A stretch of DNA of 64,000 nucleotides from NCBI GenBank assembly GCA_963700065.1, contig CAVOWJ010000005.1:620953-684952 (forward strand), in the 5' to 3' direction. The notes under the pieces were generated by a model that was given only the letters and a program-made list of their open reading frames with translations, made no database searches and had not been told where the DNA came from. Shown in pieces: positions 38,331-44,968 of the stretch (positions within the stretch are counted from its first letter, which is position 1; the number at the start of each line of letters is the position of its first letter). The stretch is from an uncultured Acidobacteriota bacterium (GTDB lineage: Bacteria; Acidobacteriota; Vicinamibacteria; Vicinamibacterales; JAKQTR01). The translations under genes and the position numbers were made by a program.

Positions 38331-39728
38331 GTGGCTCCTGGCTCCAAGACCGTCCTCGTCGTCGACGACGACGAGGGGATGCGCGACACGCTGACGGCCA
38401 TCCTGCGCCGCGACTACCGCGTGCTGCGCGCGGCCACGGGCGAGATCGGGCTGTCCATCCTCGACCGCGAAACCGTGGACGTCGTGCTGCTCGACGTGCG
38501 GCTGCCGGGCATGGGCGGCTTCGAGATGCTGCAGGAGATCAGGGAGACGCAGCGCCTCGTCGAGGTCATCATGATCTCGGCCATCAACGAGGTCGAGACC
38601 GCCGTCCGCGCCATGAAGCTCGGCGCCTATCACTACATCACCAAGGACTTCGAGTACGACGCCGTGCTGTCGCTCGTCCGCAACGCGTCGGACCGCACCG
38701 ATCTCCACCGCAAGGTGATGTCGCTGAGCGCCCAGGTGGCCGACGATCGCGACCGGCCGTTCATCACGGGCTCGAGCCGCGCGATGCGCGAGATCCTCGA
38801 CCTGGTGCGCAAGGTGGCCGGCCTCGACACGACGGTGCTCATCCTCGGCGAGAGCGGCACCGGCAAGGAGCTGCTGGCCCGCATGATCCACCGCGAGTCG
38901 GCCCGCGCCGACGGCCCCTTCATGCCGGTCAACCTGGCGGCCATCCCCGCCGACCTGGTCGAGTCGGCGCTGTTCGGCCACGAGAAGGGCTCGTTCACCG
39001 GCGCGGTGCGCCAGCAGATCGGGAAGTTCGAGCTGGCCGACCGCGGCACGCTGTTCCTCGACGAGATCGGCGAGCTGAAACCCGACGTGCAGGCGAAGCT
39101 GCTGCGCGCGATCCAGGAGTCGGAAATCGAGCGGGTCGGCGGCGGCCGCCCCATCCGCGTGAACCTGCGGATCATCGCGGCCACCAACGTCGATCTCGAG
39201 AAGGCCGTGCGCGACGGGCGCTTCCGCGAGGACCTCTACTACCGGGTCAGGGTCATCCCGATGCAGGTGCCGCCGCTGCGCGAGCGGATGGAAGACCTCG
39301 ACGCGCTGGTGACCTTCTTCCTGGGCCGCTACAACACGAAGTTCAGGAAGCAGGTGCTGGGCATCGAGCCGTCCGCCATGGAGGTGCTCGGGGCCTACCC
39401 GTGGCCCGGCAACGTCCGCGAGCTCGAGAACCTGATGGAGCGCCTGGTGGCCGTCAGCGAGGGCGACTGGATCGGCGACGAGGACCTGCCCTACGAGTTC
39501 CACCTGGCGAAGCTCGTCAGGCCCGACGAGACGACCGAGGGCCTCTTCGACCGCGCCTGCGAGACCTTCGAGCGCAACTTCATCCTCAAGACGCTCGAGC
39601 ACGAGCGCTGGAACGTGACGGCCGCGGCCCGCACGCTGGGCATGCCGCTCAGCACGCTCAAGTTCAAGATGGACCGCCTCGATATCCGCCAGATCGCCCG
39701 CAAGCTCCGCCGTGCAGGCCCGGCCTGA
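38331..39728 (+). CDS. Sigma54-dependent response regulator (NtrC family: REC, AAA+, Fis HTH)
   Basis: [15 protein letters not shown]...[13 protein letters not shown]. Walker A GESGTGKE. Sigma54-contact loop [11 protein letters not shown]-terminal [26 protein letters not shown] start with GAAAGGA upstream. Confidence 0.9.
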
Positions 39729-40002
39729 CCCTTGCAGGCTGCGTGGGTCAGCGACGAATCTGAACCTTGGGGGCGTCGCAGAAACTGCAACGGGTGTCTC
39801 GCTCTGATGTGGCAGCTGCCGCCACGTGTCTCCATTGTGGACACCGACGCGCACGGGCGTCTGCTGGCAGGATGCACCCACCATTCACGAGGCGCTTTCG
39901 CGTCATAATCGCTGCGTTCAAAGGGTCTCGTCGGCACGCGGCGCGCGGCGGCCCGCAGGGTCCGGCCGCCCCGGCCGGGGCTGCAGCCCCTCCCGCCGCC
40001 GC

Positions 40003-43184: not shown

Positions 43185-44968
43185 GCACGCTGCGCGTCCG
43201 CTTCGCGCTGATGCTCGCCACGGCCGCCGTGGTGCCGCTGCTCACGTACGGGGCGGTCTCGGTGTACTCCCTGCGCGAGAGCACGCGGCGCACGGTGACG
43301 GAGGGCAACATCAACCTCGCGCGGCAGGTGGCCGAGCAGGTGCGCCGCTATGTCGCCACCAACCTGCAGATTCTCGACGCGCTCGCCGCCGATCTCGACA
43401 GCACGGGGCTCGATGCGGCGCAACAGGATCGGATTCTCAAGAACTACGTCCTCCGCTTCCCGGAGTTCCGTGAACTGACGGCGTTCGACGCCGCAGGGCG
43501 CCCCGTGGCCACCAGCCGGCTGGGCGCGCCAGGCGTCCGCATCCCCGGCGCCGACGCGGTCGACCTCTACGGCGCCCGGATGTCGCCGGTGCACGTCGAC
43601 GACGACCTCCTGCCCACGGCGCTCGTGGCCGCGCCGGTCGGCCGCGGCGGCAGGCAGGCTGGCTGGCTCGTCGGCGAGTTCAGCATCGAGGAACTGTGGC
43701 GCCTGACCGGGCGCATCCGCGTGGGCGCGTCGGGCTACGTCATGGTGGCGGACCCGCGCGGCGGCCTGCTGGCCCACGGCAATCCCGAGCAGCGCTCGAC
43801 CGTTGCGCGCGGCGAGAGCCTCGCCGGTGACCCGATCGTGAAGGCGCTGCTCGGCGCCGCGCCCGGGACGCCGCAGGTCGTCGAGCGGCAGGGCCGGGGC
43901 GGCGTGCCCGTGGTCGCGGTCGGCATCCGCGTGCCGGAACTCGGCTGGATGGTGCTGGTCGAGCAGCCCGCCCGCGAGGCGTTCGCCGCGGCGCGCCGCC
44001 ACGAGCGTGATCTCATCGCGGCCATCAGCCTCGCGCTGCTCATCATGCTGCTCGCGGGCCTGGTCTGGGGCCGGTCGCTCATCCAGCCGATCCGCGAGAT
44101 CATCCGCGGCACCGAGGCCATCGCGGACGGCCGGCTCGACGAGCGCGTCCGCGTCACGACGAAGACCGAGCTGGGGCGGCTCGGCGAAGCGTTCAACACG
44201 ATGGCGGGCCGCCTCGGCGAGCTCCAGGAAGACGTGCGGAAGCAGGAGCGCCACGCCATGTTCGGCCGCGTGGCCGCGGGCCTGGTCCACGACCTGTCGC
44301 ACCCGTTCAAGAACGTCCAGAACAACTGCCGGCTCGTCGTCAAGATGCACGACGACCCGGAATACCTCGAGCTGTTCAAGCGCACGACCGACCGCGAGTT
44401 CGCCCAGGTCAAGCGCGTGTTCGAGGATCTCCGCAACATCGCGCGGCCGATGCCGATGGAGCGCTTCCCGCTGGACCTGAACAAGCTGGTGTCGGACGTC
44501 GCGGAGTCGATGCGCGCCAACGCGTCGGCCGCGGGCCTGACCATCGACCTGGATCTCGCCGCTGACACCCTCTACGTCGAAGGCGACATGTTCGCCCTGA
44601 GCCGCGTGTGCCGCAATCTCATGATGAACGCGATCGAGGCCACCGCGCCGAACGGGCGCATCACCCTCAGCACCGCCTCCGAGAACGGGCGCGCCGTGCT
44701 GCGCGTCGCCGACACGGGCTGCGGCATCCCGGCCGACCGGCTCGACACGATGTTCGAGGACTTCAATACGACGAAGCGCCAGGGCCTCGGCCTGGGCCTG
44801 GCGATCACGAAGAAGATCGTGGATCAGTCGGAAGGGACCATTGCCGCCACGAGCGTCGTGGGCGCGGGCACGACCTTCGCCGTGTCGCTTGCACGGGCCC
44901 CAGCGCCGGCGGAGGGAATTCCCGGCGAGCCTGGCGGCGAGCCGGCCGACTGGCCGGCGCCGGTGTAG
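43181..44968 (+). CDS. Sensor histidine kinase (TM, Cache-like periplasmic domain, TM, HAMP, HisKA, HATPase)
   Basis: The ATG overlaps the SBP stop (ATGA 43181-43184). HAMP IQPIREIIRGTEAIADGRLDERV. H-box AAGLVHDLSHPFKN. N/G boxes NLMMNAIEA, VADTGCGI and GLGLGLAI. Confidence 0.9.
   Translation: MSTLRVRFALMLATAAVVPLLTYGAVSVYSLRESTRRTVTEGNINLARQVAEQVRRYVATNLQILDALAADLDSTGLDAAQQDRILKNYVLRFPEFRELTAFDAAGRPVATSRLGAPGVRIPGADAVDLYGARMSPVHVDDDLLPTALVAAPVGRGGRQAGWLVGEFSIEELWRLTGRIRVGASGYVMVADPRGGLLAHGNPEQRSTVARGESLAGDPIVKALLGAAPGTPQVVERQGRGGVPVVAVGIRVPELGWMVLVEQPAREAFAAARRHERDLIAAISLALLIMLLAGLVWGRSLIQPIREIIRGTEAIADGRLDERVRVTTKTELGRLGEAFNTMAGRLGELQEDVRKQERHAMFGRVAAGLVHDLSHPFKNVQNNCRLVVKMHDDPEYLELFKRTTDREFAQVKRVFEDLRNIARPMPMERFPLDLNKLVSDVAESMRANASAAGLTIDLDLAADTLYVEGDMFALSRVCRNLMMNAIEATAPNGRITLSTASENGRAVLRVADTGCGIPADRLDTMFEDFNTTKRQGLGLGLAITKKIVDQSEGTIAATSVVGAGTTFAVSLARAPAPAEGIPGEPGGEPADWPAPV

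Follow-up and report, generated by a model that had tools for sequence, protein, structure and literature searches.

Several described systems share parts with the locus analyzed here, a block of five genes at positions 38331 to 44968 of a 64,000-nucleotide stretch of DNA (the window; contig CAVOWJ010000005.1, G+C ~70%) from an uncultured acidobacterium of the order Vicinamibacterales (assembly GCA_963700065.1; 5.5 Mb, 15 contigs, 87.5% complete). LuxP/LuxQ, TorT/TorS, and AioX/AioS/AioR are sensors built from a periplasmic binding protein and a kinase, and AioR is a sigma54 activator. Among peptides that are made on the ribosome and modified after translation (RiPPs), nisin, through NisRK, and streptide, under Shp/Rgg, are autoinduced or quorum-controlled products of monoderm bacteria, for which sensing is either membrane-based or intracellular. 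The methanobactin locus combines a RiPP with the TonB receptor MbnT, the family-5 binding protein MbnE, MbnB/MbnC, and control by an extracytoplasmic function (ECF) sigma factor. Quorum sensing in diderm bacteria is dominated by small molecules. Vicinamibacterales are abundant, mostly uncultured soil and sediment bacteria, and to our knowledge almost nothing is known of their signalling and secretion.

A first reading of this DNA (the earlier note) had listed five co-directional genes in the block. Profile searches and translations recovered all five at the same coordinates and bore out the list of parts:

38331-39728, forward strand: NtrC-type response regulator and sigma54 activator, with receiver, AAA+ domain carrying GSFTGA, and HTH_8 (Pfam and NCBIfam).
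40045-41488, forward strand: radical S-adenosylmethionine (SAM)/SPASM peptide maturase with an RRE-like (RiPP recognition element-like) N-terminal domain, interrupted in the assembly by one extra base.
41485-41577, forward strand: precursor peptide open reading frame (ORF) of 30 codons, MKVKVLKGAKKAPSREMCPWMITVPPESGK, with homologous ORFs in related loci.
41685-43184, forward strand: orphan family-5 solute-binding protein; its start codon is uncertain, and gene callers choose 41685.
43181-44968, forward strand: membrane histidine kinase with periplasmic dCache, HAMP, and HATPase_c domains (Pfam).

The ATGA overlaps reported between the maturase stop and the peptide start, and between the binding-protein stop and the kinase start (43181-43184), were both read in the sequence. 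The best explanation is that the block is a single functional module in which a three-component sensor controls a radical SAM peptide-modification cassette. That the locus is a functional RiPP module under sigma54 control, equipped with a sensor of its own, is very probable; whether that sensor reads the module's own product is evenly balanced, and the whole chain of the explanation, set out below, stands slightly better than even.

The locus resembles LuxPQ, TorTS, and AioXSR in that an orphan binding protein is encoded next to a kinase whose sensor domain is periplasmic, with transporter genes absent. It resembles AioXSR further in its regulator, which is of the NtrC type and activates a sigma54 promoter. 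It differs from them in using a family-5 binding protein (the peptide/nickel/opine type) and in its targets, a peptide-modifying enzyme and its precursor. With nisin and streptide it shares a dedicated sensor beside the genes of a ribosomal modified peptide, and the product may feed back positively; unlike those systems, it belongs to a diderm, in which sensing would be periplasmic, through the binding protein, with a sigma54 output. As in the methanobactin locus, a ribosomal peptide is linked to a family-5 binding protein and, in relatives, also to a TonB-dependent receptor, but there is no MbnB/MbnC and no exporter, and control is by kinase and sigma54 instead of an ECF sigma factor. The module belongs to none of these systems, and the combination appears undescribed: we found no published description of it in the searchable literature. 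The earlier note had not recognized the exact wiring as a characterized system. The wiring is not unique to this genome but is that of a family whose members occur in genomes of species level by the hundred.

The order regulator, maturase, peptide, binding protein, kinase was found in ~80 loci, and the module in 310 species-level genomes plus other lineages; homologues with E <= 1e-30 came to 564 representatives. The block is surrounded by genes for LipB, the E2 and E3 proteins of a 2-oxoacid dehydrogenase, a TPR protein, HU, QueF, and an M14 carboxypeptidase, with parts of the lipoamide dehydrogenase complex among them; no exporter, protease, or ABC permease gene adjoins the block among the neighbour genes of the window. 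E2/E3 upstream and HU/QueF downstream are conserved across Vicinamibacterales too, and the five-gene conservation in 80 loci was dropped as proof of linkage because the flanks are equally conserved. Presence and absence at this fixed chromosomal site were more informative. Among 301 sampled genomes of the phylum, 9 of the 25 belonging to the order had close orthologues, and the remaining sampled genomes had none. In four same-order genomes LipB-E2-HU-QueF is present and the block is missing as a whole; one keeps only E3 and the regulator. At this last locus, L104 (G218:C3, 14062-15427), the regulator stands alone between E3 and HU, its match in two pieces as if frameshifted; this locus lacks the maturase, peptide, binding-protein, and kinase genes and looks like a deletion remnant.

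The second line of evidence comes from eleven maturase homologues of 35-41% identity on unrelated contigs with 37-72% G+C:

L091: regulator, TonB receptor, maturase, peptide, binding protein, dCache kinase.
L093/L094: binding protein, peptide, maturase, kinase, regulator.
L113: regulator and TonB receptor, divergent from maturase, peptide, binding protein, kinase.
L111: binding protein, peptide, maturase, kinase.
L095/L096: maturase, peptide, binding protein only.
L092: maturase, kinase.
Three short contigs: TonB receptor adjoining the maturase, one also with the regulator.

None of the module parts was found on the P0134 contig, another of the eleven. Four of these homologues (L091, L093/94, L113, L111) thus have the binding protein, peptide, maturase, and dCache kinase in other gene orders; three of the four also have the sigma54 regulator, and the fourth contig ends first. 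A TonB-dependent receptor lies beside the maturase in five of the eleven. The absence of the block as a whole at a fixed site, together with the recurrence of the same parts in distant contexts, indicates that the parts are linked across gene orders, base compositions, and flanks, beyond plain synteny, and bears out the proposed association of binding protein, kinase, and regulator with the maturase.

Within the maturase, the radical SAM domain scored 62.8 bits (PF04055, cut-off 29.5), and two cluster-binding regions were located:

40352-40375, forward strand: CX3CX2C radical SAM cluster motif (CNFACDYC), read in the sequence; its residues are invariant in homologue alignments.
41150-41404, forward strand: SPASM domain for auxiliary 4Fe-4S clusters, with CX2CX5CX3C at C426-C439 (TIGR04085, 49.3 bits, cut-off 27).

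The SPASM motif and its flanking cysteines are also invariant in those alignments. In an AlphaFold2 model of the enzyme (predicted local distance difference test score, pLDDT, 80 overall), residues 7-87, modelled at pLDDT ~90, form three strands and then three helices (beta-beta-beta-alpha-alpha-alpha) ahead of the core. No Pfam model matched this N-terminal domain; its modelled layout is that of peptide-recognition (RRE, PqqD-like) domains, and we accordingly describe it as RRE-like. The closest solved relative is CteB of thermocellin (5WGG/5WHY), both by sequence (E 4e-25, identity ~18%) and as best fold match (TM-score 0.67 over the full length, with the N-terminal domain covered). Of the NCBIfam models, the top one for the read-through protein was TIGR04280, the 'geopeptide' maturase, an uncharacterized hypothetical equivalog, which is the best named model for this maturase and its 35-41% relatives alike (250-345 bits). 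The likeness extends to the RRE-like domain, radical SAM core, and SPASM layout; the window maturase nevertheless stays below the cut-off (264 versus 400 bits), and no NCBIfam peptide model matches the precursor. We found no paper on geopeptide or TIGR04280 in the searchable literature. CefB, TIGR04463, FlmE/OhkG, Clo7bot, PapB, and QhpD followed, and the PapB (113 versus 340 bits), SCIFF (81 versus 425 bits), and QhpD (97 bits) models were all below cut-off. The best-scoring named families (geopeptide maturase, CefB, TIGR04463, PapB, and QhpD) all act on Cys-containing peptides. Judged by its domains, the enzyme is a RiPP-type maturase outside all named families, since it falls below each cut-off; the architecture first claimed for it is borne out by the domain models for core and SPASM, and the modelled N-terminus would fit it. 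The earlier note had also considered a sulfatase-maturase type, and TIGR03942 reached 58.4 bits against a cut-off of 349, with no sulfatase gene among the neighbours of the block; that identity is ruled out by the score, the dedicated precursor peptide, and the extra N-terminal domain.

The maturase gene is broken in the assembly, its N-terminal 81 codons and the remainder lying in different frames through a +1 shift near 40288:

40287-40288, forward strand: GG where near-identical sequences (assemblies and metagenome contigs) have a single G.

When GTAC at 40288 is read as one step, a 477-residue protein results that aligns gap-free at the junction (ALESYFAAFRDD) to intact 480-aa homologues, and homologues at 97% identity are likewise intact at 480 aa. 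Where the window reads GAATCGGTAC, GAATC-GTAC stands in L109 and L110, both near-identical assemblies, and one letter is absent at 40287 in all covering contigs of the wetland metagenome runs X1, X2, and X4; uncovered parts of the stretch in run X3 were taken as evidence of nothing. The 1-base correction that had been called for near 40287 is thereby specified as one extra G, private to this assembly, which reflects either a mistake in assembling or a mutation that arose very recently. A decayed or accidental locus, with a real frameshift and a gene order that is merely inherited synteny without coupling, would account for the break and for flanks that are syntenic across the order. Since the extra G is missing from both near-identical assemblies and from the three runs, the gene is intact in the population and the locus is not decayed; every other part is intact, and the module recurs in unrelated contexts with other gene orders. 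Decay, which the earlier note had raised, is thus largely refuted and scarcely credible. In related loci from long-read metagenome-assembled genomes (L014, L019, L021, L025, and others), the binding-protein or kinase matches are often split or partial, and all four large genes are intact ORFs in only 35 of 80 loci. Single-base indels look common in such assemblies, which fits an assembly error as the source of the extra G.

The 30-codon ORF is preceded by a ribosome-binding site, AGGAGGAG, 8 nt upstream, and encodes a leader (MKxxVxK...), the invariant Cys18, and a core, CPWMITVPPESGK. It is single-copy in the genome (E 3.5e-11). We found 77 homologous small ORFs beside the maturase in related loci, nearly all of which have one behind the enzyme gene. 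They have a leader MK(I/V)x(V/I)xKK, ~10 variable residues, and then the Cys, after which Pro, one aromatic and two hydrophobic residues, and Asp/Glu usually come. The Cys is the sole invariant column among 44 aligned peptides, and the core is highly variable. Distant relatives carry peptides of the same kind before or after the enzyme gene (MKLVVVKKGSRKENAKPTKCQAFVSW, MKVIKKGEERLSEKNQVCCPAFAFPYNGYDEEE, MKIIKKGSKIVVPRPDCQVVIDWR, and MKITVIKKGTRKQAPKPVACKPVLY), and tandem Cys-peptide copies, 2-4 in number, occur in several related loci, with four in L037. No Pfam or NCBIfam family matched the window peptide, and none in NCBIfam matched with eight relatives included at E up to 10. By these sequence comparisons the ORF, proposed earlier as the peptide gene of the maturase, is a member of a real precursor family.

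The 30-residue Cys peptide is probably the substrate of the maturase and cross-linked by it. The invariant Cys, combined with the nearest enzyme families, leads us to propose that the enzyme would form a thioether between Cys18 and a residue close by; the likeliest position is i+5, which is Thr23 in the window and Asp/Glu in most relatives. CteB reportedly links Cys32 to Thr37 in its substrate, and the Cys-x4-Thr spacing of the window peptide equals this, with an invariant Cys in the substrate here; the Cys-x4-Asp/Glu of most relatives is the donor-acceptor pair that PapB (freyrasin) and QhpD use. The differences from these enzymes are the low identity to CteB, the PapB, SCIFF, and QhpD scores far below cut-off, and the single Cys with a single likely ring predicted here; nor are those systems tied to a binding-protein/kinase/sigma54 sensor. 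SPASM enzymes also make cofactors, QhpD is among the models matched, and an exporter is absent from the block, all of which would suit a peptide converted into an intracellular or periplasmic cofactor or another retained product (such as PQQ, mycofactocin, or a QhpD-crosslinked subunit) and induced through the sensor once a substrate is there. We consider this highly improbable, as no partner dehydrogenase or extra tailoring gene lies in the block or is conserved beside it, a highly variable core does not suit a cofactor, and relatives carry tandem precursor copies.

A second type of peptide, MK..KK..GTLRPWLVDVxVxHLR, with Arg/Ser replacing the Cys, is encoded between the maturase and the Cys peptide in 28 related loci. 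Examples, all outside the window, are L068:9461-9544, L071:9450-9533, and L051:3938-4045, and intermediates in L051 have the usual leader but SPWLVDV.

The regulator matched Response_reg (PF00072), Sigma54_activat (PF00158, 230.8 bits), AAA_lid_14, and HTH_8 (PF02954), and its identity is 62-87% across those related loci whose sequence extends upstream to include it. With a receiver, an AAA+ domain bearing a GAFTGA-type loop, and a helix-turn-helix all present in the translation, it is by sequence an NtrC-family sigma54 activator. Three candidate control elements lie between its gene and the maturase:

40003-40018, forward strand: sigma54-type -24/-12 promoter CGGAACGCCCCTTGCA, fitting GG-N10-GC, 27 nt from the maturase ATG at 40045.
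39775-39791, no strand assigned: dyad-like block 1, GTCGCAGAAACTGCAAC, candidate activator site ~225 bp upstream of the promoter, conserved as TTGCAG-N-CTGCAA in the 7 closest loci.
39809-39825, no strand assigned: dyad-like block 2, GTGGCAGCTGCCGCCAC, candidate activator site; GTGGCA-N-TGCCAC in the close clade.

We searched the 330 nt upstream of the maturase for [TC]GG[ACT][AC][CT]-N5-[TC]TGC[ATC] and found the motif in 69 of 78 related loci, against a background of 0.023 per 330 nt in all fetched DNA. Consensus-grade TGGCAC-N5-TTGC precedes the module in three distant relatives (L091, L093/L094, and L098), and the genome encodes rpoN (450.8 bits); these results uphold the sigma54 wiring first read from the locus. 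Both dyad-like blocks, ~190-230 bp upstream of the promoter, are conserved in the seven closest loci. They were not recognizable in more distant clades, strict patterns for them matched only a few close loci, and they are best described as clade-specific candidate activator sites, not a family-wide feature.

A further element follows the peptide gene:

41626-41675, forward strand: strong hairpin with 25-nt arms and a perfect 16+16 core (z = -3.5).

Across 67 loci, the best hairpin 3' of the last peptide gene averaged -29.1 kcal/mol versus -23.8 kcal/mol for shuffled sequence. Most of the loci have a comparable hairpin, several being classical terminators with T-runs, and L109 and L110 differ from the window in it by a single substitution in the distal 3' arm (41669). 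Its position and conservation point to a likely terminator or attenuator between the maturase-peptide and binding protein-kinase genes. Because the hairpin follows the peptide gene, the sigma54 unit would be maturase plus precursor, with the sensor genes behind an attenuator that would keep precursor mRNA above sensor mRNA. The earlier note had the activator driving the same operon, which oversimplifies: the sigma54 promoter stands ahead of maturase and peptide, the hairpin precedes the binding-protein and kinase genes, and the regulator gene itself lies upstream of the promoter. The hairpin also overlaps the likely start region of the binding protein, whose translation may depend on the structure.

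The binding protein matched SBP_bac_5 at 204.8 bits. Candidate starts are 41658 (CTG), 41679 (TTG), and 41685 (GTG), with a Cys codon at 41712; homologues show a hydrophobic stretch and then a conserved Cys, and the protein is probably a lipoprotein. The window and several close relatives have no ATG/GTG/TTG where a normal signal peptide would begin (41535-41712), and GTG codons further upstream are the peptide's Met-Cys and Pro-Trp codons in another frame. A long ORF at 41535-43184 was rejected as a gene, being an artefact of high G+C and of the peptide's CPW codons, and another at 39826-41577 was rejected as a product of high G+C. No ABC permease or ATPase gene was found near the binding-protein gene in the block, its flanks, or the distant versions examined; as judged from gene content, this is an orphan encoded with a kinase and without transporter genes, as in binding-protein-dependent kinases.

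The nearest named models of the binding protein are the nickel (NikA), opine-metal (CntA), and oligopeptide binding proteins. The first two, a TonB-dependent receptor adjacent in five of the eleven distant relatives, and the Cys, Trp, and acidic residues of the core would fit a methanobactin-like secreted metal scavenger that is loaded outside, returns through the TonB receptor, and is reported in its loaded form by the binding protein and kinase. We regard such a scavenger as improbable: none of the versions seen has a linked inner-membrane permease or ATPase to deliver metal to the cytoplasm, a thioether would use up the sole thiol, and the window locus has neither a metal-responsive regulator nor metal-related neighbours.

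We compared rates of divergence in the 36 loci with all genes intact. Mean identity was 74% for the regulator, 65% for the maturase, and 64% for the cytoplasmic part of the kinase, and 47% for its periplasmic part, 40% for the peptide core, and 37% for the binding protein, the fastest-evolving part. In partial Mantel correlations over these loci, after removal of a proxy for phylogeny, taken as the average over the three slow parts, the binding protein correlated with the kinase periplasmic domain at r = 0.73, and this co-variation suggests contact between the two. The peptide core correlated with the binding protein at r = 0.31, versus -0.11 with the regulator and -0.02 with the maturase. The rate pattern fits, as a hint, co-diversification of a signal and its receptor. 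Complex prediction for the mature binding protein and the 30-aa peptide, both given as alignments, scored 0.03 against a mark of 0.32, which speaks neither for nor against binding.

In the circuit that we propose, the kinase would phosphorylate the activator, which would bind the upstream dyads and open the sigma54 promoter; the RRE-like domain would grip the MKxxVxKK leader for modification; and the modified peptide would leave the cell and re-enter the periplasm, where the linked TonB-dependent receptor could import it in several relatives. Capture by the binding protein would then activate the kinase and give positive feedback. The TonB receptors of the relatives imply a ligand from outside the cell, and the absence of a linked inner-membrane importer in any version examined favours signalling over nutrition or uptake. 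Co-inheritance, the faster evolution of the extracytoplasmic parts, and these TonB receptors are consistent with sensing of the module's own product.

A one-way circuit would use the same parts differently. In it, an external cue unrelated to the product, such as a foreign peptide, metal complex, or nutrient, would be sensed by the binding protein and kinase, together with a TonB receptor where there is one, and the modified peptide would be output only, for example an antimicrobial or protective factor; we hold this to be a genuine but lesser possibility. Such a circuit agrees with a block that offers no exporter and no evidence of self-recognition, with the nickel, opine-metal, and oligopeptide binders as best named relatives of the binding protein, and with a sigma54 promoter that in this clade drives just maturase and peptide, the hairpin preceding the sensor genes. 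It is harder to reconcile with three sensor families that stay with the maturase at 35-41% identity in varied orders and contexts and are lost together, which is unusual for a swappable environmental regulator. In L095/96 the maturase, peptide, and binding protein alone are retained, and the divergence of the binding protein, the fastest-evolving part, follows that of the peptide core more closely than the divergence of regulator or maturase does. Roles other than self-sensing and a one-way circuit are unlikely.

Several observations weigh against the proposed self-sensing module. The maturase is frameshifted in this assembly. Because the flanks are syntenic across the order, gene order within it is weak evidence. 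The i+5 residue varies (T, C, A, S, G) within the window's own clade, which makes the acceptor residue uncertain, and a pure Cys-thioether model leaves the Cys-less RPWLVDV type unexplained. The partial Mantel result is only a hint, as it does not remove shared ancestry in full and the fast parts still have some phylogenetic signal in common. In or beside the block we found no exporter, leader protease, or secretion signal, so peptide export is an assumption, and no TonB receptor lies within the window's block.

If the sensor does read the peptide, the module would provide a peptide self-signalling route with a defined receptor, which is rare in diderms. We advance only tentatively the fuller idea of a diderm peptide pheromone, in which the crosslinked peptide is released, comes back over the outer membrane, by way of a TonB-dependent receptor where one is linked, is read in the periplasm by the lipoprotein binding protein, and through kinase and sigma54 activator induces its own synthesis. 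Speculative to the same degree is the corollary that the fast-diverging core, binding protein, and kinase sensor domain are lineage-specific 'dialects' among soil Acidobacteriota and other phyla. Even without self-sensing, the locus offers a precursor family that is new to thioether-type radical SAM chemistry, an orphan three-component system with a clear sigma54 regulon, and a clear example of testing a module by presence and absence at a fixed chromosomal site. It is a compact enzyme-peptide pair linked to a dedicated periplasmic sensor, widespread and directly testable.

Other genes of the window were noted in passing. The M14 gene encodes an 899-residue zinc carboxypeptidase (46149-48848, forward strand) and sits 1.2 kb 3' of the kinase gene, a position kept in 12 of 80 loci, all in the window's close clade. 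B-type M14 enzymes trim Lys/Arg, and one or the other is the last residue of almost every peptide in the family, which may be coincidence. A 714-residue protein of the major facilitator superfamily (MFS; 30919-33063, forward strand), 5 kb upstream of the block and not adjacent to it, matches MFS_3 ('transmembrane secretion effector'), to which some siderophore exporters belong. Finally, an ECF sigma factor gene (33135-33785, reverse strand) is preceded, ~50 nt upstream, by a second sigma54-like element, CGGAATAATCCTTGCT (33835-33850, reverse strand), and could be another sigma54 target.

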